NCBI GenBank assembly: GCA_964440465.1
Contig: CAYTSI010000002.1
Location: forward strand, 15,559-79,558
Direction: 5' to 3'
DNA from: an uncultured Spirochaetales bacterium
GTDB taxonomy: Bacteria; Spirochaetota; Spirochaetia; SPDA01; CAZSGZ01
DNA: 64,000 nucleotides
Shown here: in pieces, positions 26,451 through 60,744 of the stretch
How positions within the stretch are numbered: the first letter of the stretch is position 1
How the letters are laid out: every line of letters starts with the position of its first letter
The notes under the pieces: model-generated
Databases searched by the model: none
What the model saw: only the letters and a program-made list of their open reading frames with translations
Told to the model about the DNA's origin: nothing
Made by a program: the position numbers and the translations under genes

Positions 26451-26891
26451 ATGGCAAAAGTTAGCGAATCTGCAAATTGTCTTATCGGAGAAGGTTCGGT
26501 TTTCGAGGGGAGATTTTTTGTAGAAGGATCGATACGCATCGAAGGCAAATTCGAAGGTGAAATAAAAACGGAAGACCAGCTCGTTATTGCTCCCAGCGGG
26601 AAAGTGAAGACCGATATCGTCGCGAAACGGGTTGTTGTAGCCGGGACACTCATCGGCAACATCAAGGCTTCGGAAGAGGTCAATCTGCTGGAAACGGGGA
26701 AGGTCTTGGGGAATATCGAAACTCCGAAACTAATCGTAGAGCCGGGAATCGTTTCGCAGGGGAAAGTCTCAATTACTTCAAATGTCTCCGGGGAAGTTGA
26801 ATCGGTTATCAATACCGCCTTCGGGGAGGACGCGAAAACATTATTTTCCAATCTTGGTAATGAAAAAAAACCTAAGCAAAAACAGGAATAA
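26451..26891 (+). CDS. bactofilin (polymer-forming cytoskeletal protein, DUF583)
   Basis: Right-handed beta-helix repeat pattern (SVFEGRFFVEGSIRIEGKFEGEIKTEDQLVIAPSGKVKTDIVAKRVVVAGTLIGNIKA...). AAGGAG RBS. Confidence 0.75.
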   Translation: MAKVSESANCLIGEGSVFEGRFFVEGSIRIEGKFEGEIKTEDQLVIAPSGKVKTDIVAKRVVVAGTLIGNIKASEEVNLLETGKVLGNIETPKLIVEPGIVSQGKVSITSNVSGEVESVINTAFGEDAKTLFSNLGNEKKPKQKQE

Positions 26892-26916
26892 CAGCGGTCC
26901 GAGTTCCGTACAGGAA

Positions 26917-27669
26917 ATGATACGCCTGAAAAACAAAGATGAAATCAAACGGATAAAGGACTCGGGACGTATTTTAGGGGAAATGTACAGTAAAATACGA
27001 CCGCTGATAGTACCGGGAATAAGCACCGGCGAGCTTGACAAGTTCGCGCGCGACTTTGTGGAAAAACGGGGGGCGAAAGCGGCCTTTTTCGGGTATATGG
27101 AGTATCCCGCCTCCCTCTGCGTTTCCGTGAATGAGGAAGTAATTCACGGAATCCCGGGAAAACGGAAACTGCTGGAGGGGGACATTATCAGTCTCGATTT
27201 CGGGGTGGACCTGAAAGGGTATATCAGCGATTCCGCCTTTAGCATGGCGGTGGGGAAGATCTCCCCGGAGGCGGAACAACTGATGGACCTTACCCGGAAA
27301 GCACTCTACGCGGCGATTGAACAAGCCGCGGCGGGCAATAGAATACGGGACATATCCGCGGCGGTGTACGGAAAGGCTGAAGAAAAGGGATACGGAGTGG
27401 TAAGAGAATATTGCGGACACGGCGTGGGCTTCGAAGTCCACGAGCCGCCGCAGATACCGAATTATATCGCGAAGGGGAGAAACCCGCGGATCAGACCCGG
27501 AATGGTACTGGCAATCGAACCGATGATCAATGCCGGGACCGGCGATATACTGGTTTTAGACGACGAATGGACGGTAATTACCGCGGACAGAAAGTTGTCC
27601 GCCCATTTCGAACATACCGTTGCCGTTCATGAAGACTGTACCGAAATATTGACCGGCGGCGGGGACTGA
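26917..27669 (+). CDS. map: methionine aminopeptidase type I
   Basis: CHGVGFEVHE, LAIEPM and FEHTVAV metal-ligand motifs. Start chosen at MIRLKNKDEIKRIK. The track ORF from 26782 overlaps bactofilin and is probably an N-terminal over-extension (alternative ATG 26860). Confidence 0.85.
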   Translation: MIRLKNKDEIKRIKDSGRILGEMYSKIRPLIVPGISTGELDKFARDFVEKRGAKAAFFGYMEYPASLCVSVNEEVIHGIPGKRKLLEGDIISLDFGVDLKGYISDSAFSMAVGKISPEAEQLMDLTRKALYAAIEQAAAGNRIRDISAAVYGKAEEKGYGVVREYCGHGVGFEVHEPPQIPNYIAKGRNPRIRPGMVLAIEPMINAGTGDILVLDDEWTVITADRKLSAHFEHTVAVHEDCTEILTGGGD

Positions 27670-29108
27670 TGAAAAAAAAATTGTCGGCACCGGTCTGTAG
27701 TTTCGCCTGCCTTTTTTCGCTGCTGCTCTTCTCAGGCTGCGCGACCCGCGCCGGAGAGGGCCGGCTGGAGGCCGCCCTGGAACTGCAGGAGACCTTTCGC
27801 CGGATAGCCGTTGATGTCCTGCCGGTCGTGGTAAAGCTGGAAGTTGTCGAAATTACTACACAAATCGCGCCGGAAGGAGATGATTTCCCCTTTTCTCCCT
27901 GGCATTTCGGCCCTTTTGATCCGGACAAAGATCTGGAACGAAAACGGGAGTTTATCAATCAGGGAATCGGCTCCGGTGTAATTGTCGAAAAGGCCGGAGA
28001 CACGTTTTACGTCTTAACGAACGAACACGTAGCGGGAAAGGCCGACACGGTCCGCGTGCATTTATACGACAAACGGACGTTTATCGGTAAAGTTGTCGGT
28101 ACCGACAGCAGAAAGGACCTGGCAATGATTTCCTTTACCGCCCCTTCCGGAGACGTTCCTATCGCGGTACTCGGCAATTCGGAGGAGACGAGGGTAGGCG
28201 ACTGGGTGTTGGCTGTCGGCAACCCCTTCGGATATGAATCGACGATAACCACGGGAGTTGTCAGCGCGATCGGCAGGAGAGGGCCGACGGGCAGTATCAG
28301 CGATTTTATTCAGACCGACGCGGCCATCAATCAGGGGAATTCAGGCGGGGCGCTGGTGAATTTGTACGGTGAGGTGATTGGAATTAATACCTGGATTTCC
28401 ACGCCGACAGGCGGAAATATCGGCATTAGTTTTGCGATTCCCGTCAACAATGTAAAAAAGGCCCTGCGCGATTTTATCGAGGTCGGCAGTATCCGGTACG
28501 GCTGGCTGGGTATCAGCATAGCCGAACTCATGGCGCCCGCGGCGGAAGACCTCGGCGTCGCGGGTAGGAACGGTGCCTTTGTCTACCATGTGTTCCGCGG
28601 TTCGCCCGCCGCGGAAGGGGGGATTGTGCCCGGGGATTTCATCACAAAACTGAACGGTACGGACATCGAGGACTCGAACCATCTCATTTTTTTTGTCGGG
28701 GACCTCGAGCCTGAAGAAAATATTGAAATCTCCCTGATACGAAACGGCGAGCCGACGACGCTGCGGGTTGAAATCGGCCTGCGTTCCGACGCGGAAATGA
28801 TTTCCAACCAGAGTGAAGATTTATGGCCCGGAATCGGGGTACTGCCGCTGACATCCGGTGTCCGGGAAGAATTCAGCGTCGATGAAGGTCTGAAGGGTGT
28901 TATTGTGAGTGACGTGGAGCCGAAAACACCATTTCAGGAGCTTGGGGTACAATTCGGCGACATTTTGACCGAAATAAATGGTAACGGCATTCATTCGATG
29001 CATGATTTTTATACCGCCTTGACCAAAGCGGACCCGGAGGAATTCAACGTTACGGTCTTTCGAAACGGTATAAAAAATAGGCTGCCAATGGACAAGGACA
29101 ACAGCTGA
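27669..29108 (+). CDS. htrA: HtrA/DegP-family serine endopeptidase with two PDZ domains, lipoprotein-type signal
   Basis: Catalytic triad context HVAG...D...GNSGGALVN. PDZ-like C-terminal halves. Signal LLLFSGC. ATGA overlap with the map stop. Confidence 0.9.
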   Translation: MKKKLSAPVCSFACLFSLLLFSGCATRAGEGRLEAALELQETFRRIAVDVLPVVVKLEVVEITTQIAPEGDDFPFSPWHFGPFDPDKDLERKREFINQGIGSGVIVEKAGDTFYVLTNEHVAGKADTVRVHLYDKRTFIGKVVGTDSRKDLAMISFTAPSGDVPIAVLGNSEETRVGDWVLAVGNPFGYESTITTGVVSAIGRRGPTGSISDFIQTDAAINQGNSGGALVNLYGEVIGINTWISTPTGGNIGISFAIPVNNVKKALRDFIEVGSIRYGWLGISIAELMAPAAEDLGVAGRNGAFVYHVFRGSPAAEGGIVPGDFITKLNGTDIEDSNHLIFFVGDLEPEENIEISLIRNGEPTTLRVEIGLRSDAEMISNQSEDLWPGIGVLPLTSGVREEFSVDEGLKGVIVSDVEPKTPFQELGVQFGDILTEINGNGIHSMHDFYTALTKADPEEFNVTVFRNGIKNRLPMDKDNS

Positions 29109-29716
29109 TGAAAAAAGAATTTCTTTCCTACACTACCGTCCGCAATAACGCGTTGAAACTGGCGTACACCATTTACAAGGACGACTTTGTTCCGGATGTT
29201 ATTTATGTTTCCCTCCGGGGAGGGGCCTATCTCGCGAATATTCTGAGCGAATACTTTAAATTCGTGCGGAGAGACAAACATCCTGTTTTCTATGCCGCTG
29301 TGGTCGCCCGGTCCTATACCGGGATCGCGCTGCAGGAAGGGATAAAGATCGACGGCTGGACCTACGACCCCGAATATCTCCGTTCCGGGGACAAAGTGCT
29401 GCTGGTGGACGATATTTTCGACAGCGGAAAAACAATCAACAAACTGGTGGAAGTAATTTTGCAAAAGGGAATACCCCGGGAGGATGTCCGGGTGGCGGTA
29501 CACGATTACAAAGTAATTCAGTATTTAGACAGGGAGATGCCCGTCCAGCCCTATTATTACTGCAGAAAACACATTATACCGACGAAGGAGGATGAAATCT
29601 GGATACACTACTCCAGCCATGAACTGGTCGGACTGTCCGAAGAGGAGCTGGAGGAGTATTATTTCAGCGCGGACCCGGAACTCCGGGAGGCACTCAGCAT
29701 TTTTAAACAGTCATGA
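29108..29716 (+). CDS. phosphoribosyltransferase-like protein
   Basis: PRPP-binding-type motif VLLVDDIFDSGKT. 202 aa. ATGA overlaps on both sides. Confidence 0.5.
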   Translation: MKKEFLSYTTVRNNALKLAYTIYKDDFVPDVIYVSLRGGAYLANILSEYFKFVRRDKHPVFYAAVVARSYTGIALQEGIKIDGWTYDPEYLRSGDKVLLVDDIFDSGKTINKLVEVILQKGIPREDVRVAVHDYKVIQYLDREMPVQPYYYCRKHIIPTKEDEIWIHYSSHELVGLSEEELEEYYFSADPELREALSIFKQS

Positions 29717-32700
29717 AGCGAATTGTACTGCCGTTATTGCTGATATTCATTCCCCTCTTCTCCACCGCGGAAGAACACGGCGGAACTTTCCTGTTTTCCC
29801 ATACCCCCGGCAGTTATCCCCGGGACATATATCTCGAACTTACGGGGGAAGGGCCGGACGGCAGGGAGCTGTATTACTACTTTGAAGAGAGTCTCAATCA
29901 GACCCCTGTGGAATATTCAGTACCGCTCCATCTCTCCGCTCTGCAGGGAGAAACTCGTACCTATTCCCTGGTGGTTTTTGAGAAAGAGGACTGGGAAAAC
30001 CGAAAACGGGCGGTGTTTATTATTGACCGGGAAAAACCCCCGCCTCCGAAAGTTTCGGTGGAACCGGGTATTTTTTCCGATGAAATTGCCCTTACCTACC
30101 GTTCCGGCAGCGGCGGGGACGTTTATTATTCCGTAAAAACGGAAGATTACGCGGAGTACAACAAATGGGACGGCACACCGGTCCTGCTGCAGGGGAAAGA
30201 CGGGTATATAATGACATACACGGTGGGTGTGTACGCCGTCGATGAGGCGGGAAACCGGGGGCCGACAGCCGAATACACCTACGTTATCAATAAAAGTACC
30301 CGTTTTCCCGGACATTATCTTGATATTTCCAGCCCCGCGGCGGGGACGTTTCAGAATACACAGCTCCTTGCCTGTGTTCACGAAGGTTTTTCCTGGATCA
30401 GGTATACCGTTAACGGCGACAACCCGGTTACCGACGGAACTGAGTACACAACGCCGGTAATGATCCGGAAGCGGGGGAAGGTCGTTCTGCGGATCGCGGG
30501 GTATGTTCCCGACACGAAAGAAATTGTCGAAAAAAAAATTGAATACATGGTAGCGGAAGAGGCCCGGCCGCTGCTTTCCGTTGAAAGCGGAGTAATAACG
30601 GAAACGGTCCGGATAGAATTTGTAGGCGGTCCCGGCTTCCGGTATACCATGAATGATACGCCGCCGGGCATATATGATGAAACCGCTTTTTCATCACTTA
30701 CCCTCGAACCGCCGCGGAATATGCGGCGTCCCGTTGTCCTTAGGTTCGCGGACCCCGCCTCGGAAGCGGGAGATTACAGATATACCTACGTTCTTGACGG
30801 CTGGAAACCTGCAGCGCCCCGATGTTTCGCTTTTCAGCAGGAGAACAGGAGGGAATACAAGGTTGCCTTCGCCGCCGAAAGGGGAACGGCCGTTTACTAC
30901 ACCCGGGGCGGCGAAGAACCGGACACCGGTTCAATTCGGTACGCCGGGCCGTTCGCGGTGGAAGCACCCGGGCCGGGGGAAAGTCCGTCCGCGGTCATTA
31001 AGGCTGTCGCCGTCTCGCGTACCGGCGGCAGGTCCGAAACAGCGGAGCTGCGCCTCGAATTCTCCCGCGATCTCCCGCCGGCGCCCTCCGGGAAGGTTGA
31101 AAACAACAACAGGGTTATTATCGAAAAACCCGCCCCGGGGGCTGTTATTTACGAAAAGAGCAGCGACCCCTTGTCCCTGCCCGTCCCCGGTGCCGCTTCG
31201 CCGGAGATAGACGGAGACATCCTTTTTACCCTTCCCTACGGTATGGAGCAGAAAACATACCTGCAGCTGGCGCTGCGGGACAAACATGGAAATGTATCCG
31301 GACCTTCCGAGATTTTCGAATTGTCCGTCGATAATCAGCCGCCCGCGAAGCCGGTAATAAAGTTTCTCGACGGAATTGTCAAAATTACCCCGCAAAGCGG
31401 GAGTACGGCCTACTTTACCCTTGTACGGGAGGTTGACGGGACCGCGGAAGTACGAAATAGAGACGAGTTGTATGAAAAACCGTTTTTTGTTTTCGGCAGT
31501 GAGGGGAAGAAGACGGAGTATGAGCTTAGCGCGTACGCGGTCGACGGGGCGGGAAACAACAGCGGTGAAACGGATGCAATGCGGTTTTCAGTTGATACGC
31601 GGGAACCGGCGCCGCTGACCGTAAGCGGTGTCGAAGACGGCGGTATCTATAACGAAGCGGTAACAATCCGGTTTTCCTCCATGTACGCCGACCAGAAGGT
31701 CCTGTATACGGCCGAAACGGACGCGGGAGAGGGTACGGAACTTCAGGTCGATACGGCCTCAGAGGCCGCTGGAGAGGGCGTCATTGTGTTTTCCGGAGAG
31801 GAAGACACGGTACATACCTATACGGTTGCGTATGCCCCGTATTTGGAGGACAACGGCAGTATTGGAGAGACGCGGCAGCTTTCCTTCACAATCGACATGC
31901 AGCTTCCGCAAGCCCCCCGCGTGCGGGGTATTGAGCATGAGGCGGAATATGTAAACGGCGTTACCATTACCCACAGTAACCCTGAGGAAGGTGAAACGGT
32001 ATACTACAGCATCAGCACCGGCGGGACGGCCCCTCCGGACTGTTTCGGCCGGGAGGGGAGGAAATTCGTATCACCCCTGCATCTGCAAGGGGAAAAGGAC
32101 AAAAAAATAACGTATTCGCTGCTGTTCGGGTCCGTCGACGAAGCCGGAAACACAACCTACTCCGAAGAACTGTATGTATTTACCATCGACAGAGAAGCGC
32201 CGAAGGCACCGGCCGCGCGGGTAGAGTATCCCGACGAAAACATGTCCCGGGCGGAAGTGTCTGTTGAAGCCGGCGAAGAGATTTCGGTGTTTTATGAAAT
32301 AGCTGAAGGAAATATCCTCCCGGCAATTCCTCATGAGGAGTCGTCCCTCTTCGATCCCGGTTCTCCCCTTATTCTCAGCGGAAGAGATGGAGAGGATGTA
32401 ACCTACAACATCAGACTTATCAGTGTCGACGCGGCCGGAAACAGAAGCAGGGAAGTACCGGTATTTTCAGTGCGGATCGATAAAAAGGACCCCGGCGCGG
32501 GAGGGGAACCGGTATATATTTCCTATAAATCGGGCGCGGTCGACATCAGCTGGGACCATCTGCGGGGAGTAGATATTTTTTATGCTTTCGATGGTGAAGA
32601 CTGGAAGAAGTACGAATCACCACTAACCATTTCCGGCGGAAGCGCGCAAACAATTTCCTACTATTTCAAGGACCGGGCGGGAAATACAAGTAAAACCGCG

Positions 32701-34854
32701 TCGATTGAGGTGCCCGCGTATAGGATAAGCGCCGACATCGACTCCTTTCTCGCGGGCGCCGAAAACGGAGGAAGGTACAACGGGCCGGTAACCGTCTATA
32801 CCGAGTCGGGTAATTTTCTGTGCAGGTATGAAACGGCCTTCGCCGAAGAGCATCTGCGGGACATTTCCCAATTCAGCCCGATTATGGATGGAAAAAAACA
32901 ATTCGATGTGCTGCCGGGTGAAACGGCACACTTTTTTCTCGCGGCCCAGCTCTTTGACCGCGGGACAAACCTGCCCGTTTCCGAACAGGAAAAATTGCAT
33001 TTCACCATCGATACAACAAAACCGTCGGTGCCTGCCTTCGATATTACCGGGGGCACCTACTTTCAGGACACAATTACCATTCCCATCAGTGCCGAAGAAG
33101 GGGCAATTGTGTATTCGGTAACAAAATTTGACGCTTTGGGGAAACCTCTGGAAATAATCGAAGATATCCGCTATTCCACACCGGTCACTCTGGATGTGCC
33201 GAAAGGCGAATACAGCAGCTTTGCCTTGTCCGCCTATAGCGTCGATGAAGTCGGAAATAAAAGCCGCGTGGTGACCTTAGATGATCTTATTATCGATAAA
33301 AAGATTATTTACGTTTCGCGGCTGGGGAACGACGGATACGGCGGTTCGAGGAGCAGACCTTTTAAAACCCTGGGAAAGGCGGTTGCGTACGCGAAAGAAA
33401 CCGATCGAAACATCATGTATGTTTCCGGCGGGCAATTTCCAATCGATGATACCCTAACGTTCAATGAAGACCTTTTTCTGCAGGGAGGATACGATCCCTT
33501 TACGTGGAAGCAGGACGGTCCGGAGGAGACAGTTATTTCCGCGGGAGCTTATATGCCGGAAAACGGCATACTGCTCAGTATCTCCGCCGGGACAATACAC
33601 CTCAAGTCCCTGACGCTGGTAACCGACAAGAGGGACCCCGTTGTACTTCACATTTCGGGAGGCGAGCTGTCGGCATCCGCTGTAACGCTTATGAACCTTC
33701 ATACCGATTCTATGCCGCTCTTTCTGCAGGAGGGGGGGAAGGCCGAACTGCTGAACACGAAATGTACATCCTACAGCGGCAGTGCTCCGGAAATAATCAA
33801 GAACGTTTCCGGAGAGCTTCTGCTGAAAAACACAACAGTAGAAAACAAAGGGAAACACGGCGGCAGCCTCAAGGTACTTCGCGTCGAAAACAGCAAAAAA
33901 GTCCGAATTGAAAATTCGGTCTTACTTGCCGGAAGCGCCGCGGTAAGCACCGTCCTGTCCGCGAAAGATACATCGGTCGAGTGCATTGCATCGACTTTCA
34001 GCACCGGGACAGCGAACAGCAGGAGTTTCGGAATCGAGGCCGCGGGGTCGGAACTCTATGTTGAAAAATCAACAATTACCGCGAGCAGTTCTTCACGGAT
34101 CAATACCCTCATTGCCGCCTCAGCCGATTCAGCAGTTATGCTGAAAAACAGCACCCTGCACATTACCGGCGGGACCGGCGGCATCGGGATACAAGCCGCC
34201 GACTCTACGCTCGACATGTACAACTGCCTTGTAACGGGAGAAAAGGGCAATGAATTCCTCTATCCCTTTCAACTGAAACATACAAAATTTTTGGTACAGA
34301 ACAATTATATAACCATTTCCACCGCCGGGGACTTTATCGGTTTCGATGTTACCGGCGGGACCGGCAGGCTGTTCAACAATACGGTCCTGTTTGCTTCAAG
34401 TTCTCCGAACTCCTACGCCCTGCGGGGCAGAGAACCTGCTCTTTTCTATGCAGTCAACAACATCATCATGAACACGTCGGAAAAAAACGACGGCCCCTGT
34501 ATTGCCCTTGGAGGTGTAAAAGAGACACGGATTATTGCAAACAATCTGCACGGATGGAAAACGGCGCTGCAGGTCAGCGGGACCGAATACGCGGGCGTTA
34601 TGGACCTCAACAACGCCGACGGCAATGCCCGGGGGGGGGATTACCATAAAAATATTTCTGAATCTTTTACGAATAGCTTCCTCATTACAAAGACGGAGGC
34701 CCCCTATTATCTGAAGCAGTCCTCCCGCTGTGTAAACGGAGGGGTCAATGTAGAGGAAATGGGAGGTCTGCCCGTTGATTTCGAGGGGGACGTCCGTCCA
34801 AATCCCGAAGAGGGGCTCAAACCGGAATACGATATCGGCGCGGACGAGTTTTAA
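29713..34854 (+). CDS. giant secreted/surface protein: signal peptide, about 7-9 Ig-like/CHB_HEX_C-like repeats, C-terminal DUF1565-type right-handed beta-helix
   Basis: 1713 aa. Signal MKRIVLPLLLIFIPLFSTA. Recurring about-100-aa modules ending in Y.VD.AGN.S. C-terminal IIYVSRLGNDGYGGSRSRPFKTLGKAVAYA followed by N/T/S/G-rich beta-helix rungs. Confidence 0.7.
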   Translation: MKRIVLPLLLIFIPLFSTAEEHGGTFLFSHTPGSYPRDIYLELTGEGPDGRELYYYFEESLNQTPVEYSVPLHLSALQGETRTYSLVVFEKEDWENRKRAVFIIDREKPPPPKVSVEPGIFSDEIALTYRSGSGGDVYYSVKTEDYAEYNKWDGTPVLLQGKDGYIMTYTVGVYAVDEAGNRGPTAEYTYVINKSTRFPGHYLDISSPAAGTFQNTQLLACVHEGFSWIRYTVNGDNPVTDGTEYTTPVMIRKRGKVVLRIAGYVPDTKEIVEKKIEYMVAEEARPLLSVESGVITETVRIEFVGGPGFRYTMNDTPPGIYDETAFSSLTLEPPRNMRRPVVLRFADPASEAGDYRYTYVLDGWKPAAPRCFAFQQENRREYKVAFAAERGTAVYYTRGGEEPDTGSIRYAGPFAVEAPGPGESPSAVIKAVAVSRTGGRSETAELRLEFSRDLPPAPSGKVENNNRVIIEKPAPGAVIYEKSSDPLSLPVPGAASPEIDGDILFTLPYGMEQKTYLQLALRDKHGNVSGPSEIFELSVDNQPPAKPVIKFLDGIVKITPQSGSTAYFTLVREVDGTAEVRNRDELYEKPFFVFGSEGKKTEYELSAYAVDGAGNNSGETDAMRFSVDTREPAPLTVSGVEDGGIYNEAVTIRFSSMYADQKVLYTAETDAGEGTELQVDTASEAAGEGVIVFSGEEDTVHTYTVAYAPYLEDNGSIGETRQLSFTIDMQLPQAPRVRGIEHEAEYVNGVTITHSNPEEGETVYYSISTGGTAPPDCFGREGRKFVSPLHLQGEKDKKITYSLLFGSVDEAGNTTYSEELYVFTIDREAPKAPAARVEYPDENMSRAEVSVEAGEEISVFYEIAEGNILPAIPHEESSLFDPGSPLILSGRDGEDVTYNIRLISVDAAGNRSREVPVFSVRIDKKDPGAGGEPVYISYKSGAVDISWDHLRGVDIFYAFDGEDWKKYESPLTISGGSAQTISYYFKDRAGNTSKTASIEVPAYRISADIDSFLAGAENGGRYNGPVTVYTESGNFLCRYETAFAEEHLRDISQFSPIMDGKKQFDVLPGETAHFFLAAQLFDRGTNLPVSEQEKLHFTIDTTKPSVPAFDITGGTYFQDTITIPISAEEGAIVYSVTKFDALGKPLEIIEDIRYSTPVTLDVPKGEYSSFALSAYSVDEVGNKSRVVTLDDLIIDKKIIYVSRLGNDGYGGSRSRPFKTLGKAVAYAKETDRNIMYVSGGQFPIDDTLTFNEDLFLQGGYDPFTWKQDGPEETVISAGAYMPENGILLSISAGTIHLKSLTLVTDKRDPVVLHISGGELSASAVTLMNLHTDSMPLFLQEGGKAELLNTKCTSYSGSAPEIIKNVSGELLLKNTTVENKGKHGGSLKVLRVENSKKVRIENSVLLAGSAAVSTVLSAKDTSVECIASTFSTGTANSRSFGIEAAGSELYVEKSTITASSSSRINTLIAASADSAVMLKNSTLHITGGTGGIGIQAADSTLDMYNCLVTGEKGNEFLYPFQLKHTKFLVQNNYITISTAGDFIGFDVTGGTGRLFNNTVLFASSSPNSYALRGREPALFYAVNNIIMNTSEKNDGPCIALGGVKETRIIANNLHGWKTALQVSGTEYAGVMDLNNADGNARGGDYHKNISESFTNSFLITKTEAPYYLKQSSRCVNGGVNVEEMGGLPVDFEGDVRPNPEEGLKPEYDIGADEF
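34631..34639 (+). repeat. G9 homopolymer inside the giant surface-protein CDS
   Basis: gcccGGGGGGGGGatt read directly. Encodes ...NARGGDY... about 215 nt before the stop. Confidence 0.9.
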
Positions 34855-34869
34855 GCTGTAAAAAACGTC

Positions 34870-36069
34870 TTATTCACGGCTCCAGATACGCTGTCCCGCC
34901 TCGGCATTGTAGGTATTGCGCCACAGTCCGCTGCTGGTTGTACAGGCAAAAATGATATCGTCCCCGCCGCCGGCACCCGCCGGGTCATAGGCAAAGGAGC
35001 GGATCGAATTATTCGCCAGTTTTGTATTGAGATAGTTGATCGTTGTTGTTTCAGTAAGACCGCTGGGAGCGGTTATTGACAGGGAATCGGCATCGGGACC
35101 ATCGGCAATGCCGATTTCATAATAGCCGTTGTCCGATCCGACAATAACGGTTACAGCCCCGGTGTCGTCATAACCGGAACCGGGTACTTTTATCAGGTCG
35201 TAAAACACTTCAGCTGTTTCCCCGGAATATTTGGTAATGCTGGAATACCAGCCTGAAGAGATGTCGGCCGAAGAAGCGGGCCGGTTTTTTACCAAAACGA
35301 CGCCGTTTTTGGAGGAAATGAATATCTTTTCAATCTCCGGGCAGTAGTATACCCCGCCTATATTCGCGGGGGTCATGACCGTACCGCCGGTATTCGTCAA
35401 ACTGACCCGGGTCGTAAGGACGGCGGGGTCCGTGCCGGAGAAAACAGTGTCGCCGCTGATAAACCAGTAATTAGTTCCGTCGAAATCGCCGTCAAAAATC
35501 ATACGGACCGAGTAATCGTTGTCGCCGGGAAGGTCGACTAAGGAAAACGTGCTTCCGTCGGAAGAGTAGAAAAGGGCGTACGGGTCATACGCCGAATCGA
35601 GGTCTTCCTTGAGGACCGACACATACAGTCCCGAATCGACGGCCATCAATCCCGTCACCCGTTCGGACGCGGCGCCGCTTATCGAACCTGCCTCGGTCCA
35701 GGGAGCGTTACCTGCCGTGTAGGTATACAGTTTTGAGGTAGCGGCATCACCCGTTCTGTACATGGCATACAGTGTGCCGTTGAAATATTCAATGTCGGAA
35801 CTGAGCATCCCCTCCGCGGGGGGCGGGATTTCCTCCCAGTCCCCGGATTCGATGCCGCGGCTGTACACTTTCCCGGCGGCTATAAAATAGCTGTCGCCGG
35901 TTTTTGTTAATTTCCACACTTTTAACGAGTCTTCAAGGCCCTTGTCTCCCTCGAGGTCTTTTTCCACCTCCAGACTGTAGAAAATACCCATCGTTTCCTG
36001 GGTGCACCCGGAAACAAAAAGGACCAGAACAACTGATATCGTACATACATAACTACATAACTTCTTCAT
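34870..36069 (-). CDS. hypothetical lipoprotein (beta-propeller-like)
   Basis: Lipobox MKKLCSYVCTISVVLVLFVSGC. Gly/Ser/Thr/Tyr-rich repeats suggest a beta-rich fold. Start trimmed from the track ORF (36168) to the Met preceding the signal peptide. RBS ACGGAG upstream. Confidence 0.5.
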   Translation of the reverse strand: MKKLCSYVCTISVVLVLFVSGCTQETMGIFYSLEVEKDLEGDKGLEDSLKVWKLTKTGDSYFIAAGKVYSRGIESGDWEEIPPPAEGMLSSDIEYFNGTLYAMYRTGDAATSKLYTYTAGNAPWTEAGSISGAASERVTGLMAVDSGLYVSVLKEDLDSAYDPYALFYSSDGSTFSLVDLPGDNDYSVRMIFDGDFDGTNYWFISGDTVFSGTDPAVLTTRVSLTNTGGTVMTPANIGGVYYCPEIEKIFISSKNGVVLVKNRPASSADISSGWYSSITKYSGETAEVFYDLIKVPGSGYDDTGAVTVIVGSDNGYYEIGIADGPDADSLSITAPSGLTETTTINYLNTKLANNSIRSFAYDPAGAGGGDDIIFACTTSSGLWRNTYNAEAGQRIWSRE

Positions 36070-36083
36070 GGTAAATACTCCGT

Positions 36084-36707
36084 TTAAAAATGATAGAGCG
36101 CGGAGAGTGAGACTTCCAGAAAATTCCCGTAACGGTTCTGCGGCACCAGGGCATCTTTCGTATACCACTGGGGTGAAAACCAGTACACAACGTTCAAGCC
36201 GGCGGCCCAGGTACCGTTGATGTTCCAGTACAGGGAAGCGCCGGGTTTCACAATAAGCCCGACGTACAGCGATTCCTCGAGTGTAACAAAATTGAGACCG
36301 GTGCCGAGATAGATTGGTATTTCAAAGGGGTAGGCATAGAAAAAATATCCAATTTTAAAGGTTATCGGTATGATCGCCAGGACCCTGCCGAGGGGGCTGA
36401 AGGAAAAAGAACCGGCAAGTTCCGCCCCTAAGGTGAGATGTTCGGTTACGAAGGCATTCCACTCCAGGGAGCCGACACCGCCTAAAGATAAATTCGTGGA
36501 AACAGCGGAACCGCCCCCGAAAAAGAAGAGGGGAATAAATAACCCCGCGTTTACGGCAAATATCTGGTCTCCTAAGGCGTAGGAAACTTCGGGAATTCCT
36601 TCCGTTTCCTCCTCCTCCTGAGCGAAAATTTCTCCGCTTATTGAAAACAACAACGCGAAAATAGATATGAAAAGTAAAATACGTTTATGTCGCACAAAAA
36701 ACCTCAC
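36084..36707 (-). CDS. putative small outer-membrane beta-barrel protein
   Basis: Signal peptide ending AQEEEE. Alternating amphipathic beta-strands with aromatic girdle. C-terminal ...LSALYHF (terminal Phe), typical of OMP barrels. 14 nt upstream of the lipoprotein gene. Confidence 0.5.
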   Translation of the reverse strand: MRFFVRHKRILLFISIFALLFSISGEIFAQEEEETEGIPEVSYALGDQIFAVNAGLFIPLFFFGGGSAVSTNLSLGGVGSLEWNAFVTEHLTLGAELAGSFSFSPLGRVLAIIPITFKIGYFFYAYPFEIPIYLGTGLNFVTLEESLYVGLIVKPGASLYWNINGTWAAGLNVVYWFSPQWYTKDALVPQNRYGNFLEVSLSALYHF

Positions 36708-36792
36708 TTCAGTTACATAAAGATACTATCACCGCCAAAACAAATTTTCAATAGAGTTGGCATTCTAATCATGTTTTGATAGTATTGGCGGT

Positions 36793-37479
36793 ATGATTAA
36801 TAGAGTTACCGCAATTCAGGATAAAATACGAATACAAAACTGTATTATCAGTGTGGCCGACAAGACAGGATGTGCTGAATTCGTTGTAGAATTACTGAAA
36901 ATTATACCGGACCTTTCCGTTTTTTCCACCGGCGGTACATTTTCCCTTATTGAAAAAGCCCTGCCCGCGGAAAAGAAAAACGCGCTTGTCAATATTTCAG
37001 ATTTTACCGGCCGGCCGGAAATGCAGGGAGGGCTCGTGAAGACCTTGGATTTTACAATTTATACCGGTATCCTGAGCGAGCCCGGAAATAACGAGCACCG
37101 GCGGTATATTCGGGAGATAGGCGGAAGGGCCTTCGATATGATCGTTGTCAACTTGTATCCCTTCCGTCAGGCGGCGGCGAAGGAAAACAGTACGGTGGAA
37201 GATGCCCGGTCCCACATCGATATCGGCGGCCCCTCTATGCTTCGGGCGGGAGCGAAGAACTTTCTCCGGGTCGCAAGTGTCTGTGATCCTTCGGATTACG
37301 GGAGTATTATTTCCGAAATGAAAGCAAACGATGGAAGGCTTTCCGTTGCCGCGCGGCTCGATCTGGCGAAAAAGGCTTTTGCCCATACGGAAGAGTACGA
37401 CAGGGGAATTCACAGCTATTTCGAAACCATAGACGCGGATAATCTGAAGGCCGCGTACACCATTGCCGACGGGACGTAA
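36793..37479 (+). CDS. purH: PurH N-terminal module: IMP cyclohydrolase (MGS-like domain), ends at in-frame TAA
   Basis: ISVADKTG, LYPF and IDIGGPSMLRAGAKN motifs of the IMPCH domain. Stop TAA at 37477-37479 in the same frame as the next ORF. Confidence 0.75.
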   Translation: MINRVTAIQDKIRIQNCIISVADKTGCAEFVVELLKIIPDLSVFSTGGTFSLIEKALPAEKKNALVNISDFTGRPEMQGGLVKTLDFTIYTGILSEPGNNEHRRYIREIGGRAFDMIVVNLYPFRQAAAKENSTVEDARSHIDIGGPSMLRAGAKNFLRVASVCDPSDYGSIISEMKANDGRLSVAARLDLAKKAFAHTEEYDRGIHSYFETIDADNLKAAYTIADGT

Positions 37480-40345: not shown

Positions 40346-41369
40346 ATTAGGCATTTTCCTTTTTTTCCTTCTGCCCTCTTTCTGTTCAGCCGACATTCTC
40401 GAAGCGGCTGTAGAAGAGCAGCGCGCGGGTAACCATTCCCGGGCCGCCGAGCATTTCGAAAACTGGCTTCCGGAACATGCCGACAGTGAAGAACTTCCCG
40501 AGGTCCTTGCTCTCTATTTCGAATCGGTCCGGGACCCGCGGAAGGCGCAACAGGTCCTGCGGGAAGTCCAGGCGGGATGCACGAACAGGGAAAACAGTGC
40601 AATACTTCTTTTTCACCTTGCCTTTTTGCAGGAAATGACGGGAAACATCTCCGATGCTCAACAGATGTTTGAATTTTCCAATACGCGGTCGACAAAAGCA
40701 GCGGATATTTCTAATTTTTTTCATTCCATCAGACTTCTCATATCAATGGGGGAGTTCGGCAGGGCGGAAGCGCAGACGAAGGCAATTATTACCACCGCCG
40801 GAGACAGTATGCTCAGCAGCCGGGGAAAGCTTTTTCTGTCCTATATTACATATCTAACGGGTAAGTTGAAGGAAGGGGAACGCCTTCTTTCAGAGACACA
40901 CGCCTATATTGAAAAAATGTCGGCGGCTGACGTGTATCTTTTTTATACCCTTTCCGAAATGTACGGCCGGGCACAATTCTCCGATACAGCGAGGGAACTG
41001 CTGTCGTCAAAATACGGCGGCAGCATCGAGTCTGCCGCGGCGGAAGAGGGGAGTACCGTCGTTATCGGACCGTCACTCCATCATTTCCAAGTATCGTCCG
41101 TTCAGCGGGAAGAAGAAAAAGAAAATCGGGTCATGCAAGACAGCGGTACGGTGCGTATTCAAACCGGAATATTCGCAAAACGGGATAACGCGGAAACACT
41201 GGTAGTTGCGCTCGGGCAAAACGGTTTTTCCGCGGAGACGGTGCGGGTTGACCGGGAAGGCCCGCCGTTGTACAAGGTCGTTTCTCCACCACTGCCGGCA
41301 GAGAGTTCCCAGGAATATATTCTTCAGCTGAAAGAAAAGGGGTTTGAAGGGTTTCTACTCTTCCCCTGA
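40332..41369 (+). CDS. SPOR-domain protein with signal peptide and helical region
   Basis: Signal KLGIFLFFLLPSFCSA. C-terminal SPOR-like fold (VRIQTGIFAKRDNAETLVVALGQNGFSAETV...YKVVSPPL). Confidence 0.55.
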   Translation: MKPSKLGIFLFFLLPSFCSADILEAAVEEQRAGNHSRAAEHFENWLPEHADSEELPEVLALYFESVRDPRKAQQVLREVQAGCTNRENSAILLFHLAFLQEMTGNISDAQQMFEFSNTRSTKAADISNFFHSIRLLISMGEFGRAEAQTKAIITTAGDSMLSSRGKLFLSYITYLTGKLKEGERLLSETHAYIEKMSAADVYLFYTLSEMYGRAQFSDTARELLSSKYGGSIESAAAEEGSTVVIGPSLHHFQVSSVQREEEKENRVMQDSGTVRIQTGIFAKRDNAETLVVALGQNGFSAETVRVDREGPPLYKVVSPPLPAESSQEYILQLKEKGFEGFLLFP

Positions 41370-42917
41370 TACCTCATTCACTTCTTCCGTTTCGTTCCGT
41401 TCATACCGCACATACAGCCGGGAAGTTTCCCCGAAGGGTTGAAAGCCGGACACACCAATTTTGCCGGGAGTAAGCGTTAGTTTGTAAATAGTTATTTGTT
41501 CGGTGAAGTCGACGGTCTGTTCGAGAAGATACCGTTTCGATTCGGCAACCGTATTCGATTCACTTAGGACCTTGATATTAAGGATCGTGTCGCCTTCGAT
41601 ATCATACATCGAATATTTCCCGCGGAGGGGAGTGCCGCCGGTTCTCATTTCAATGAAGGGACGCGCGAAGAGTATGCTGTCTCCGAATGAATTTTTGTAC
41701 TCCCCGCGTACTTCTTCGGGAGAGAGCACCACGCCGGTGTGAGAATACATTGCGTCCGTTACAACGCCCGCCTGGGCGGGACCGTGCAGACGGGTAAACG
41801 TACCGTCCCACATAAAATTACTTTTCGTGAAATCCCTGTCATTTATCTCGATTTTTATTACATCCATGCTTTCGACGTAAATGGAAACGTACTTCTTTAT
41901 AAACGGCACCATTTTATTGGTAACGGATATATAAATACTGTTGGGAATTCTCGTCCGGTGGGAGCTTTCCCATTCATACAGCTCCTGAATGTCTTGGGAA
42001 AAAAAGACAATTTGTCCCTCATCCGGGTTGAAAAATATGGTGGTCTGCTGATTATCGTCTTCCGGGCCGGACGTAATCCACGGTCCTGCCAAAAAATCCT
42101 CAAAGGCTTTCGTGTCCTTTGTAAAAAGTTCACGGAGCTGGGCTGCTTCGATTATTTTCCCGGGAATATACTCCACCTTTCCTTTAACGTACCTGTTTTC
42201 CTGATATTTCCAGTAATATTCTTCACGGACCAAGTCCATGATATTTTCCGTGTCCCTGTCTTGGGAGAAGGTGATAATCGGAAAGCTGCGGCCGTTCCGC
42301 TGGCCTTGTTTGTACGCCTGGCTCCGTTCATACTCATGAATATCGATGCTTCCGTCGGCCGTAATGGAGCATATGGAGGTGTAATACAGACCGACCCCGG
42401 ACGGGGAAAAGGTCTGCCGGTAGATGTCGAGACTCCTCAACCCTTGCTTATCGATTCCGGAACAGAGGATTTCCAGTTTGTGATCGCCGATAATATCGAT
42501 AAAACTGATAATAAAGTTGCGGACATTTGTCGCGTTGGTAACAGCTTCCCAGGAAAGAACATACTCGTTTGAAATCTCGTCGAAATCAATCAGCTTCAGT
42601 ATTATTTCTCCGTCCGGATTGTTTCTCATTTTTCCAAATATAATTTGCTCGTCCGTTTGGTCAAGATCGAGGTTTTGATTGATTATTTTTGCCGGCAGAA
42701 ATTGTTCGTCAAGGTCGATAAGCGGTCCTACGTCGAGGCCGCCGCTATCGGTAGAAAAAGTGCCGCTTTGCTGTTCCCCGGCATTCCTGTTCCGTTCCGC
42801 CGCAGTTATTTCCCTGGGGACCGGCGGGGGAGAAGAATCGGAGGTGGGCCCCGAAGGTCCGCAGGAAAGGAGCAGGACCGGGAGGAGAATGGCGGGTACC
42901 GTAATTAATTGTCTCAC
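41355..42917 (-). CDS. hypothetical lipoprotein
   Basis: Lipobox LLLSCGPSG followed by a Pro/Ser-rich linker. 520 aa. Last gene of a four-gene minus-strand cluster. Confidence 0.5.
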   Translation of the reverse strand: MRQLITVPAILLPVLLLSCGPSGPTSDSSPPPVPREITAAERNRNAGEQQSGTFSTDSGGLDVGPLIDLDEQFLPAKIINQNLDLDQTDEQIIFGKMRNNPDGEIILKLIDFDEISNEYVLSWEAVTNATNVRNFIISFIDIIGDHKLEILCSGIDKQGLRSLDIYRQTFSPSGVGLYYTSICSITADGSIDIHEYERSQAYKQGQRNGRSFPIITFSQDRDTENIMDLVREEYYWKYQENRYVKGKVEYIPGKIIEAAQLRELFTKDTKAFEDFLAGPWITSGPEDDNQQTTIFFNPDEGQIVFFSQDIQELYEWESSHRTRIPNSIYISVTNKMVPFIKKYVSIYVESMDVIKIEINDRDFTKSNFMWDGTFTRLHGPAQAGVVTDAMYSHTGVVLSPEEVRGEYKNSFGDSILFARPFIEMRTGGTPLRGKYSMYDIEGDTILNIKVLSESNTVAESKRYLLEQTVDFTEQITIYKLTLTPGKIGVSGFQPFGETSRLYVRYERNETEEVNEVSGEE

Positions 42918-45019: not shown

Positions 45020-46411
45020 TTATACTGCCTTAAAATACAGTTCTTTTTTCAGTCCGGACTTTGCCTTCGCGGTAATTTTTTCACCTAAAACGGAGCCGGG
45101 CACATCGTCCGGCAGGGTAAACCACTTCGTATCAAGGGAAGAAAGTGTAAGCGCGTCGCCGCTGTACCTAATTACCGCTACTGTTTTTTCCCCTTTTTCA
45201 CGGACAACGACATAACCGGCGCCGTCACGGTCGAGGTAGATACTCTCTCCTTCTGCCAGTGTAATCGGCGCCGCCTGGGCGGGGCGGTTGTCGATATACA
45301 GTCTGAATTCACAGGGTTTATTTTTTTTCACGCGCAGCAGCAGCAGTACCGCCCCTGCCGCGGCGGCGAGAAAAAGGAGGGCGATAACGGGAATTATCCA
45401 AATGTTGCTGCCGAAAAACCCTTTCACTTCAATTGTTACATCTGCCTGAGCGGGGGTAAAAACAGTCAGCCCCTGAAAGGTAAAGGTGAGGGTTGTATCG
45501 TATGTTCCCGGCGCGAGGGCCTGATCGATGGTAATGGGAATTTGTATTTCTTCCGCGCCTTCTTTCGGCAGCGTATATGAACCGCCTTCCGCGAGTACCT
45601 CGTTTTCTACACCGGAAGCATGGAAATCGGCGATAATCCTGTTTAATACGATTTCCTGCTCACTCGAATAACCCTGAACCGAAAGCGGAACGGTCAGTAC
45701 GCTCTTCCCGTGTTTGTCCGGCGGCCGGACACGCGGCGGAGACGTTATTGTAATTGTACCGAAAAGGTCTTCGGTTTTTTCGGTAATTTCCTCCTGCGTC
45801 GGTTCTTCACTGGTTTCGATATACCCGCCGGAGAGCTGTTCCGCGAGTTCTTTCGCGGCGGAGGCGGTACCGATCCCTAAAACATGGATTTTCCAGCCTT
45901 CTTTCTGGATGGTCCGTGCGTTTTCCAAAAACGCGTGGTTGAAGGTGCCGTCGGGAGAATAATATTTACTCTCCTCGGGCGCCTCCTGCTTTCCGTCGGT
46001 AACAAGGAGGAGATATTTCCGCCGGTCCGGCTGTTCATAGTTTTCGATGGCCGCTTTCAGGGTGTCTAAAGCGTTTCCGATATCGGTATAACTCCCGTCG
46101 GCGGCAAGGGAGCCGATTATCCGCTTGAATTCGAGTTTTGCATCTGTTCCCGCCGTGTCCTCCGCGATAAGAACTTCAGCTTTGCCGTAGAACTGTATGA
46201 CCACGAACCTGTCACCCGGTATGAGGGTATCTTCGATAAGTGTGTCGATAACATAATTCTTGACGGGACCGATCTCTTCCTCCATGGAAAGAGATTTATC
46301 CAAAACAACGAAAATGTCGATATTCTCTTCCCGTTGGTCGGAAAATAGTGAAAAAATGGACACGAGGGATAGAATTACACCTAAAACCATATACTGTATT
46401 TGTTTATTCAT
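45020..46411 (-). CDS. von Willebrand factor A domain membrane protein (vWA-TM-cytoplasmic domain)
   Basis: N-terminal signal/TM. MIDAS DKSLSM...TDG. Internal TM IWIIPVIALLFLAAAAGAVLLLL. About 110-aa C-terminal domain of unknown type. Confidence 0.65.
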   Translation of the reverse strand: MNKQIQYMVLGVILSLVSIFSLFSDQREENIDIFVVLDKSLSMEEEIGPVKNYVIDTLIEDTLIPGDRFVVIQFYGKAEVLIAEDTAGTDAKLEFKRIIGSLAADGSYTDIGNALDTLKAAIENYEQPDRRKYLLLVTDGKQEAPEESKYYSPDGTFNHAFLENARTIQKEGWKIHVLGIGTASAAKELAEQLSGGYIETSEEPTQEEITEKTEDLFGTITITSPPRVRPPDKHGKSVLTVPLSVQGYSSEQEIVLNRIIADFHASGVENEVLAEGGSYTLPKEGAEEIQIPITIDQALAPGTYDTTLTFTFQGLTVFTPAQADVTIEVKGFFGSNIWIIPVIALLFLAAAAGAVLLLLRVKKNKPCEFRLYIDNRPAQAAPITLAEGESIYLDRDGAGYVVVREKGEKTVAVIRYSGDALTLSSLDTKWFTLPDDVPGSVLGEKITAKAKSGLKKELYFKAV

Positions 46412-46475: not shown

Positions 46476-46489
46476 AAAAAAAAAAAAAA
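46476..46489 (+). repeat. A14 homopolymer in divergent intergenic/promoter region
   Basis: acgcAAAAAAAAAAAAAAcatacTTTACA read directly. Lies 67 nt upstream of the 46557 ATG and 65 nt upstream of the vWA start on the other strand. Confidence 0.9.
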
Positions 46490-46556: not shown

Positions 46557-48611
46557 ATGGGAAGTGTAGATCTGCCTAAAAGCCCGATGGTATTTCATCC
46601 GGAAAAACGGAGCGCTGTAGGGTCTCGTAACTCCTTGGCACAAGAAAGCAGAGATCAGCAAAAAGAAGTCGACAGACTGTTAGAGGAAGAGGTCGACAAG
46701 GTCATAAATCATATAAATGCAAAACTGCCAAGAGAAGTGCTCGAGCGTCTGGATGTCATGGGCGGGTTGAAAGAAAAGTTGTACAACTATTTCAACCAGA
46801 ATTACCAAAACATGTTTAACCGTTACATCACTACTACAGAGGATGAAATGGTTAAAAAAGTCAGGAACTATATCGACAAGGAGGAAATGAAAGTCCTCAC
46901 GCGGTATACTCCGAAGGAGATCGCCGAGCTTCTCGATCAGGTCGGCGGCATGGACAAGTTTAATACCGGTGAAATTGAAAAATCCGTGGTGAATATGTAC
47001 GGTCACCTTCAGGGTCACATCCAGCGCGGGCTGAACGACCTTGAAAACCATACAAACTCCCTTCTCCGGCAAAAAACCGATGTCGGTGCTTTCATACGGG
47101 GTGAAAATGCCTATTCCATCGTCAAGTGTTCCTTTAAGGACAACATCAGGAGACCGAAAACCGTAACCGACGTCAAACTGTCGGTCAATATCCTCGATTC
47201 CGAACTCATCAGTCCTATTTTTCACTATCAGGTAACCGTTGAATATCTGGTAAAAGACCTGATTTCGAAAAACATCATGGACACCATCGATAAGGAAATC
47301 GAAAAATACAAAGACGAACTTATCGATGAAGGAAAGGAAGAACCGAACGACAGCGAAATTATCTTCGAAAAGATGAACAGGGTAACGGATCACACCGACG
47401 ATGATCAGGACAATCCCAAATCGAAACGATATAAATACCTCGCGAAAGATTTGATGGACAGGATCGAAGGATTACGGGCTGAAATTGATCCCGAAGAATT
47501 TGACGCGGCCAACATCAGAGAAAACATAAAAGAGATAATCGACATCGAAAATATTCGTAATAGGGGATACAACACTGCGATCAATTCTATTACCAGTATC
47601 CTCGACACGTCCAAAATGGGATATCAATTTGTCGAGAATATGAAAAACACCCGGGAATTGATTCTGCGGGAATACGAAGACACCGATCCGGAACACCTTC
47701 CGGACGAGCGGTACCAACTTACGCTGAAGTATTACGACAACGCTCAGCTGAACGAAGAACGGAAAGCCTACGATGTCATGATCCAGTCCTTTCAGGTAGA
47801 AACAAGCCATCTCTGGGATGTTCTTGAAATGGTGTATGTCGACTCAAAATTTATGAAAGGAGTTGTCGATTTCGACGATTTGGCACGGAAATACAAAAAC
47901 AAGATTAAAAAGAAAATCAAAATGAAAACCGGCGATCCTCTATATGAAGATATCGAGAAGAGCTGGGATGAAATTTCGTTCGTGAAACCCGCTGAAACAA
48001 AAGTCGAACAGCTGAACCGGACTTTTCAGTTTGAAAAGGACAAGGAAAAGCGAAAAATGATCCTCATGAAAGACAAACTGCAGGAGATGTACGGTTTCCG
48101 GTACCCGATCCAGCGGAGAGTTATGGAAGACCGCTTGTCCTTCCTCGAACGGGAGTTCAACAAATTCGATTATATCATCAATCCGTATCACATCCAGCCG
48201 GGGCTCTTGTTAGACGTGGACATTACGTCGATTAAGCGGAAAAAGGCGACCCTCGACGGCATGGCAAACGTGTTGAATGAATTTCTCCATGGAGTATCGA
48301 AGGGTTTCCAGGACGCCGCTTTCGCGTCATTCTCCAGAAGAAGGTCCACCATCCGTGACGACATTGAAATGAGTTTCTCCACGGACATGGAGGGAGAAGC
48401 ACAGGCGCCCGGTCAGAGCTACCTCGATATGCTGAATGCTCCCGCGGAAAGTGAATCCGTTGAACCTTCAGAGATGGTCGAAGAATCAGTACCATCCCCG
48501 CCGAAACGAAAAAGCAGCACAAAGAAAAAAGGTGTAGTAGACTCCGGATCCAAATCGCGGAGAGGAAGAAAACCGAAAAAAAGTTCGGGTGACGAACTGA
48601 AAACTCTGTAA
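46557..48611 (+). CDS. highly charged coiled-coil protein, candidate cytoplasmic filament protein CfpA-like
   Basis: 684 aa (about 79 kDa), E/K/D-rich, long predicted helices, Lys-rich C-terminal tail. AGGAG RBS 8 nt before the ATG. Followed by a strong intrinsic terminator. Neighbouring ppdK echoes the T. pallidum cfpA neighbourhood (TP0746-TP0748). Assignment is from memory of size/composition/context only. Confidence 0.45.
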
Positions 48612-60734: not shown

Positions 60735-60744
60735 GCTTTTGAGA

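Follow-up and report, generated by a model that had tools for sequence, protein, structure and literature searches.

The stretch of DNA analysed here (64,000 nucleotides (nt) of contig CAYTSI010000002.1, assembly GCA_964440465.1, hereafter referred to as the window) comes from an uncultured Spirochaetales bacterium and carries, at positions 29713-34854 of the forward strand, a giant gene encoding a protein of 1713 amino acids (aa). The product is probably a Sec-exported, all-beta rod with a structural or binding role, composed of 13 modules, a beta-helical head and a tail cap, and a run of nine guanines (G9) close to the 3' end of the gene is, in the same reading, incidental. Sequence comparison assigns the protein to an uncharacterised, widely conserved spirochaete family built from known domain types. 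A preliminary description of the locus, prepared from the DNA letters and their translations, had instead emphasised G9 as a tract for phase variation in a surface protein translated together with a periplasmic protease.

The giant gene is real. It forms one open reading frame (ORF) with an ATG start and 1713 codons plus stop, its coordinates, start and length agreeing with the preliminary description, and its product has a size of approximately 185 kDa. The signal peptide described earlier could also be read directly from the translation (residues 1-19, MKRIVLPLLLIFIPLFSTA followed by EE; 29713-29769, + strand); it is of the signal peptidase I (SPase-I) type, with a basic n-region (MKR), a hydrophobic core of 13 residues, small residues at -3 and -1 and a cleavage site between STA and EE. 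Since no Cys occurs among the first 200 residues, the protein is without a lipobox, and the invariant Cys by which spirochaetal lipoproteins are recognised is absent. A lipobox-like motif is likewise lacking in 94 of 98 family members, and no outer-membrane anchor was recognised in the family.

Residues 20-1195 (29770-33297, + strand) are occupied by 13 beta-sandwich modules, identified from linker motifs, an all-against-all phmmer comparison and the family alignment; the earlier count of about eight falls short of this number. The module boundaries, set by recurrent [IV]D..P.xP linkers, place modules 1-7 at residues 20-108, 109-196, 197-284, 285-365, 366-452, 453-541 and 542-631 and modules 8-13 at residues 632-730, 731-828, 829-925, 926-1005, 1006-1102 and 1103-1195. 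The modules had been described as about 100 aa long and each ending in an AGN-like strand. The motif is genuine; in the form D-x-x-G-N it terminates seven of the 13 modules, the sizes of which range from 80 to 99 aa. Modules 2, 7, 9, 10 and 13 recognise one another in the phmmer comparison, modules 1, 8 and 11 do so more weakly, and modules 3, 4, 5, 6 and 12 constitute a more divergent group.

Four Pfam families pass their thresholds when the protein is scored as a whole, namely Fn3_assoc (65.9 bits), CHB_HEX_C_1 (58.8 bits), Big_13 (34.9 bits) and Big_6 (28.1 bits), the latter two as whole-protein scores only. Individually, modules 3, 5 and 11 pass the CHB_HEX_C_1 (PF13290) threshold and modules 3 and 5 that of Fn3_assoc (PF13287), with module 11 just under the latter (21.6 versus 23 bits). 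Modules 2, 7 and 10, scanned singly, yield sub-threshold matches to Big_3_4 or Big_13 that cover the last strand only. Thus, among the domains proposed for this protein earlier, CHB_HEX_C_1 is borne out and DUF1565, discussed below, does not reach its threshold. Module 11 additionally matches an OmpL47-type domain (NF047446; residues 952-1000), for which the cutoff is 40 bits and its score 76.6 bits. The AlphaFold2 (AF2) model of residues 1-1197 has an all-beta secondary structure with a mean predicted local distance difference test (pLDDT) value of 45.5 and is too poor for a structural module count, classification or fold search; the module folds therefore rest on the Pfam and sequence evidence and on the secondary structure.

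In an alignment of 34 sequences, the 13 linkers and the D.AGN.S strands coincide across the members. Positional orthology of the modules, assessed across 33 relatives, is pronounced: the best match of a window module is the module at the same position in the relatives for module 1 in 29/29, module 3 in 32/32, module 12 in 29/30 and module 13 in 29/33 cases. Such position-by-position matching implies an old array of fixed length. The array is thus ancient, as judged from these alignments, and differs in this respect from the repeats of typical adhesins, whose expansion is recent.

The modules are followed by a right-handed parallel beta-helix (residues ~1196-1620; 33298-34572, + strand), which includes a conserved N-cap, IIYVS..GND..G.R..PF.TL..A. 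The AF2 model of residues 1190-1713 reproduces this fold with pLDDT values above 90 across most of residues ~1199-1620 and below 50 beyond ~1623. The beta-helix seen in the preliminary description is thereby upheld, and its DUF1565 label is not: the match to DUF1565 (PF07602) scores 18.1 bits, under the Pfam gathering threshold of 20.3, and covers residues 1205-1242 and profile positions 3-38 of 257, that is, the N-cap only. A weak match to the NCBIfam LIC10774 family is similarly confined to the N-cap. The top structural neighbour of the helix, by a wide margin, is the non-enzymatic passenger of Bordetella pertussis Vag8 (PDB 7akv), which the family profile also matches in sequence (E=2.3e-4). 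Further neighbours are adhesins (pertactin, UpaB, PfbA, Hap, Fap2) mixed with polysaccharide lyases, epimerases and phage depolymerases, and a Foldseek search of the PDB returned generic beta-helix matches only, with E-values of 2.5e-4 or worse and template modelling (TM) scores below 0.4.

Ten residues of the helix body are conserved at 80% or more (G1342, A1409, G1432, G1489, N1556, N1582, I1584, N1610, G1614 and W1615), a pattern that looks structural. No column of Asp, Glu, Lys, Arg or His reaches 80% in the helix body among 34 relatives, in an alignment at 21% identity, and no model specific to an enzyme family matched the helix (polysaccharide lyase (PL) families 1, 6 and 9 and glycoside hydrolase (GH) families 28, 55, 87 and 110 were considered). 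The lack of a conserved acidic or basic residue points, weakly at this level of identity, to a head that serves for binding or structure rather than to an enzyme.

Beyond the helix lie a linker with the family motif D.nPfGG..H.NI.E (residues 1621-1655; 34573-34677, + strand), defined from the family alignments and low pLDDT, and a C-terminal tail (residues 1656-1713; 34678-34851, + strand), a divergent choice-of-anchor-Q-like domain with the motif ...L...S.CVNGG...D.eG..RPNP..G.kP.YDIGADEF. Mean identity to 30 relatives is 44.9% in the tail, 39% in the N-cap, 24-34% in the modules and 21% in the helix body, by which measure the tail is the most conserved region of the protein. The ending ...D.eG..RPNP..G..P.YDIGADEyy is found in 60 of 109 full-length members. 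With the choice-of-anchor Q model (NF041518; cutoff 25 bits), the tail encoded in the window reaches only 13.5 bits (E=0.06), but 11 of 12 family tails match at E<=0.1, with a best E-value of 1.4e-5. Of 52 tails that could be parsed, 38 have Gly-Gly at the PfGG site. An alignment of 12 sequences shows no variation at G1642, and among 34 sequences this majority residue is shared by 88%. The C-terminal endings of other subfamilies differ (…PPFD.K.PH.GN; …FSGNR[IV]DQGL; …ELNT[FY].GF..P.GN.S). The relatives that come closest in overall length (P0002/P0010, P0003/P0009 and P0004, from loci L002 and L001) have no tail, and P0002/P0010 end about 20 residues past the PfGG-equivalent motif, roughly where the protein would end if G9 were shortened by one base.

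An exhaustive HMMER profile search with the C-terminal domain retrieved 2766 proteins with E<=1e-3, of which 106 had E<=1e-30. The same layout is shared by about 100 representatives, with lengths of ~1550-1850 aa and a helix starting at ~1140-1270, and the family amounts to at least 100 clusters at 50% identity. The few members with a name are termed 'hypothetical protein' or 'chitobiase/beta-hexosaminidase C-terminal domain-containing protein' (CHB_HEX_C), and these names come only from metagenome-assembled genomes (MAGs) of Spirochaetia or Spirochaetota; one relative is encoded in an Alkalispirochaeta MAG. Other searches were less productive. A word-indexed homology search gave four clusters only; with the C-terminal 521 aa it returned no matches, self included, and with the 34-sequence profile it added, beyond three known clusters, only unrelated multi-Ig proteins. 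Scanning of a genome collection with the window protein revealed no relative, and with P0004 as query it pointed to the Alkalispirochaeta MAG only. Loci could not be searched for by back-translation of alignments A1 and A4 because of their divergence, and a tail alignment of four sequences was used; it gave 26 loci, mostly generic matches to the DIGADE end motif, and five orthologues were confirmed by tblastn.

G9 lies exactly where it had been reported (34631-34639, + strand), in the codons CGG GGG GGG GAT (R1640-G1641-G1642-D1643), and is longer than the ~7-8 nt from which a homopolymer can slip. As proposed earlier, a slip by one base would alter the C-terminal end: the G8 (-1) product has 1666 aa, 24 of them new, and the G10 (+1) product 1645 aa, the tail being lost in both and 96% of the protein left intact. 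The tract does not reside inside the beta-helix domain, where it had been placed. It falls in the linker, at pLDDT ~30-40, after the last confident rung of the helix and directly before the conserved tail; because pLDDT drops after ~1623, its Arg-Gly-Gly lies outside the helix body. As the sequence R-G-G-D aligns with D.nPfGG..H.NI.E, G9 may be regarded as the nucleotide image of the conserved Gly-Gly.

The frequency of the tract is at the level expected by chance. In the window, GGG constitutes 26% of Gly codons and CGG plus AGG 64% of Arg codons, and the probability of a run of at least nine G at RGGD under this usage is ~0.04; the giant gene holds 24 Gly-Gly dipeptides. When codons were shuffled synonymously, a G/C run of nine or more arose in 333 of 2000 trials (17%) for the giant gene and in 246 of 300 trials (82%) for the 43 coding sequences of the window, with a mean of 1.38 runs versus the one observed, so that G9 is not over-represented relative to composition and codon usage. 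That housekeeping genes of this genome also harbour long G runs incidentally is illustrated by a G8 at 56709-56716, within the gene for IMP dehydrogenase (56520-57959).

The same species-level sequence is present in five assemblies, the window and loci L003-L006, with 99.84-100% identity in the giant gene. G9 is the same in all five, which are colinear without insertions or deletions over 11-22 kb, and every homopolymer is hence equal in length across them. The strains differ at 0-8 of 5142 nt in the giant gene, similar to htrA, so that diversifying selection is not indicated at this scale. At the G9 site, orthologues with a tail read AAT GGT or GGC GGA, and tail-less orthologues have no tract at that position either; a G/C run of seven or more is absent from the orthologous ORFs, except for an unrelated C8 elsewhere in that of L002. 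G9 occupies neither a promoter nor the 5' part of the ORF, the positions of an ON/OFF switch, and since 96% of the ORF precedes it, a slip cannot abolish production of the protein. We interpret G9 as an incidental run arising from the codons for a conserved Arg-Gly-Gly-Asp and not as a programmed switch; an occasional slip would merely yield a defective protein lacking its most conserved segment. Nothing beyond tract length speaks for phase variation, and several tests speak against it.

Other homopolymers were also noted. The longest in the window is an A14 at 46476-46489, in a 145-nt intergenic region flanked by a divergent VWA-domain gene (45020-46411, - strand) and an unannotated gene for 684 aa (46557-48611, + strand); on position alone, it is a better candidate than G9 for a length-variable promoter element, and it lies outside the parts of the other assemblies that were compared. 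Tracts of G7 are located at 8405, 13244 and 33732. Two A9 tracts, one at 27672-27680 forming codons 2-4 (Lys-Lys-Lys) of htrA right after its overlapping start, and one at 30530-30538 inside module 3 of the giant gene, have the same length in every assembly covering them.

The giant gene is the last of a closely packed set on the + strand, in which it is preceded by map, encoding a type I methionyl aminopeptidase (26860-27669; Peptidase_M24 1.1e-48, TIGR00500 4e-96; start placed at 26782, 26860 or 26917 by different gene calls), by htrA, encoding a periplasmic serine protease of the HtrA/DegP family with 479 aa, a Trypsin_2 and two PDZ domains (27669-29108; TIGR02037 7.9e-125), and by a gene for a phosphoribosyltransferase (PRTase)-like protein of 202 aa (29108-29716; Pribosyltran 4.6e-10, with weak HGPRT/PyrR-type NCBIfam matches only). 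Convergent to it lies a gene for a predicted lipoprotein of 399 aa with the lipobox LFVSG-C (34870-36069, - strand), followed by one for a small outer-membrane beta-barrel of the TP0733/TP_0126 family (36084-36707, - strand; NF047328 1.4e-55), which is syntenic in relatives. The predicted lipoprotein, in which MKKLCSYVCTISVVLVLFVSG precedes the Cys, has no Pfam or NCBIfam match. It is encoded convergently to the giant gene in all orthologous loci, at 21-29% identity, and is a possible partner of the giant protein.

The order (TPR)-(bactofilin)-map-htrA-PRTase-giant, followed by the opposite-strand ~400-aa protein, the TP0733/TP_0126-type barrel and purH, is kept in relatives, where it holds in five divergent loci (L001, L002, L009, L012 and L013) with GC contents of 39-62%. 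At these loci, the neighbours are 40-65% identical to the window proteins, the best conserved being the PRTase (62-65%), while the giant protein is 25-30% and the ~400-aa protein 21-29% identical. The neighbours related to the envelope include SurA-like, tetratricopeptide repeat (TPR), bactofilin and HtrA proteins as well as the lipobox-bearing protein and the barrel.

The genes had been depicted as a chain joined by ATGA overlaps. Start and stop codons do overlap at all three junctions; ATGA is present only at PRTase/giant (tcATGAag, 4 nt), and both map/htrA and htrA/PRTase have cTGATGa with an overlap of 1 nt. Close packing and the htrA-PRTase-giant order, kept in divergent relatives, support the proposed link of the giant gene to htrA and the PRTase gene. 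The overlaps as such vary among relatives: the corresponding gaps are 64, 34 and 7 nt in L002, and map and htrA are 51 nt apart in L009. Only the PRTase/giant junction remains tight in L002, L009 and L013 (overlap or gap of at most 7 nt). With such gaps, and the cluster being a long run of housekeeping genes on one strand, co-translation with the protease/chaperone is not sustained. No Shine-Dalgarno-like sequence occurs in the 20 nt before the start of the giant gene, which together with the ATGA overlap is compatible with termination-reinitiation coupling to the PRTase gene. In the Alkalispirochaeta MAG (L001/L007; CBDESZ010000018.1, 7100-10000), the gene calls for map, htrA and the PRTase are broken up into pieces (154, 175, 185, 80 and 81 aa), probably through long-read frameshift errors rather than as real pseudogenes, which cautions against judging homopolymer states from such assemblies.

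The assemblies derive from JGI sample 3300012009, run ERR1878617 and two 'microbial mat' runs of PRJEB25599, a project on the Tebenquiche and La Brava hypersaline mats of the Atacama (bioRxiv 10.1101/870428). The organism, with a genome GC of ~51%, is thus an uncultured spirochaete that lives free in hypersaline mats of the Andes and not a demonstrated Treponema. A protein with a pallilysin beta-barrel domain is encoded at 41355-42917 (- strand) and is syntenic in relatives; together with the TP0733/TP_0126 barrel, it places hallmarks of Treponema-like spirochaetes in a free-living mat organism. Elsewhere in the window are a tmRNA gene (60742-61101, - strand; RF00023, 150 bits), representing the sole Rfam family detected, and a gene for a 1191-aa protein (8514-12089, + strand) adjoining uvrA (5690-8512), which one source calls LptD/OstA and which has no Pfam match at E<=1e-4.

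According to the reading favoured here, the giant protein would be exported via Sec as an SPase-I-cleaved non-lipoprotein of the size given above and would mature into a long rod, in which 13 modules in fixed order are followed by a smooth right-handed helix 'head', closest in shape to non-enzymatic autotransporter passengers, and by a choice-of-anchor-Q-like cap. Its gene may belong to the core genome of a Spirochaetia clade and be passed on vertically. It would be transcribed as the last gene of a cluster for housekeeping and envelope quality control (…map-htrA-PRTase-giant), with translation probably reinitiating at the stop codon of the PRTase gene. Within the cell envelope, at the surface or in the periplasm, the protein most likely has a structural or binding role, similar to that of an adhesin or fibre; its constant number of modules, its place in the core genome and its neighbours with envelope functions together suggest an envelope fibre or scaffold.

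Four observations weigh against this reading. The N-terminal AF2 model is poor. The assemblies that agree on G9 are consensus sequences, in which minority G8 or G10 variants could go unseen. Four related lineages (P0002/P0010, P0003, P0004) are without the tail, the loss of which is therefore tolerated in at least some backgrounds. Finally, the protein shows neither a lipobox nor a beta-barrel nor any recognised sorting signal by which a path to the surface could be assigned to it.

The alternative that fares best, though it is itself improbable, is that the protein is a periplasmic scaffold or ruler, a rod of fixed length tied to peptidoglycan, outer-membrane biogenesis or cell shape and not exposed at the surface. 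An SPase-I signal without lipobox or outer-membrane anchor, the strict conservation of module number and order, and the envelope and cell-shape genes in the neighbourhood are all in keeping with such a role. However, divergence of the giant protein and of the lipoprotein next to it is much faster than that of the surrounding proteins, as would rather be expected of exposed proteins, module 11 matches a domain also present in the surface-exposed OmpL47 of Leptospira, and the nearest fold relatives of the helix are extracellular.

A slightly less likely proposition is that of a secreted polysaccharide-active enzyme, in which the helix would act as a lyase, hydrolase or epimerase and the modules as carbohydrate-associated spacers in the degradation or remodelling of mat exopolysaccharide. 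The many fold matches to PL6 and PL9 lyases, to GH55, GH87 and GH110, to alginate epimerases and to phage depolymerases agree with it, as do the match of the N-cap to the glycoside hydrolase BT_1002, the Pel9A-like_beta_helix match of P0002 and the CHB_HEX_C_1 modules, which are typical companions of glycosidases, with the beta-hexosaminidase 6q63 among the matches. These fold matches are weak, as seen from the Foldseek values, and the non-enzymatic Vag8 stands well ahead of them; the helix body carries no conserved acidic or basic residue, and core-genome synteny with a fixed length of 13 modules is unusual for carbohydrate-active enzymes.

Very improbable is a phase-variable surface protein, in which slipped-strand mispairing at G9 would toggle between the full-length and the 1666- or 1645-aa forms and so change surface properties; the tract is long enough to slip, the helix is read in frame in both products, the only loss being a tail that some natural relatives do without, but G9 occurs at chance frequency in a free-living mat organism with a comparable G8 in a housekeeping gene, is conserved in no orthologue, is found in 5/5 assemblies, cannot act as an off-switch and would, on slipping, delete the most conserved segment.

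An extension of the favoured reading, which we regard as doubtful, is that the protein represents an unrecognised core envelope fibre of free-living Spirochaetia, a 13-module rod with an autotransporter-like head that is exported without barrel, lipobox or known sorting signal and is always encoded behind htrA-PRTase and next to a lipoprotein and a TP0733-type barrel. If true, it would imply either that proteins can reach the spirochaetal surface by a new route or that the rod is a ruler spanning the periplasm. To the study of phase variation the window adds nothing, as a G9 in a genome of this GC content rich in GGG and CGG codons is by itself no evidence of a contingency locus. The remaining interest lies in an uncharacterised exported family of ~1700 aa with the same layout and chromosomal position across spirochaetes of widely differing GC, a cultured member of which, if studied, could reveal the way in which large proteins other than lipoproteins and beta-barrels are placed in the spirochaetal envelope.

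Among known systems, the poly-G tracts of Treponema pallidum, invoked earlier by analogy, are of similar length (7-11 nt) and also from a spirochaete (tprE/G/J, tprF/I, tprL, tp0126; PMC7864442). They vary in length, lie mostly in promoters, where they modulate transcription, vary within isolates and are common to the subspecies (PMC7864442). The window G9, in contrast, is coding, C-terminal, invariant in five assemblies, at chance frequency and not shared with orthologues, and it belongs to a mat spirochaete rather than a host-associated treponeme, so that the analogy is weak. Upstream of the TP_0126-family neighbour (36707-36793), no G/C run of seven or more, and thus no promoter poly-G of the T. 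pallidum kind, was found.

Proteins of the choice-of-anchor Q/DUF1565 type share with the giant protein the C-terminal D..G..RP....DIGA.E and the N-cap IYVS..G.D..G....P; the window scores for both remain under the curated thresholds given above, and no sorting signal follows the domain. Vag8 and other autotransporter passengers (pertactin, UpaB, Hap, Fap2) resemble its helix in shape, with 12% identity between the Vag8 passenger and the helix. In autotransporters the helix is N-terminal to a barrel, whereas here it is C-terminal to a stalk of 13 modules and the protein ends 93 residues past it without a barrel translocator, no C-terminal outer-membrane beta-barrel being found by Pfam or NCBIfam; on this basis the protein is not a type V autotransporter.

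The OmpL47 protein of Leptospira (LIC13050), together with the LIC10774/LIC10365 family, provides a further parallel, in that module 11 scores well above the OmpL47-type domain cutoff and the helix N-cap resembles LIC10774. The giant protein differs in size (39 kDa for OmpL47) and fails the full-length equivalog models (44.5 versus 250 bits for OmpL47; 22.6-25.5 versus 380 bits). OmpL47 is itself an SPase-I non-lipoprotein and is surface-exposed as judged by proteolysis, immunofluorescence and biotinylation (PMC2698987), which offers a precedent, not proof, for a similar location of the giant protein.

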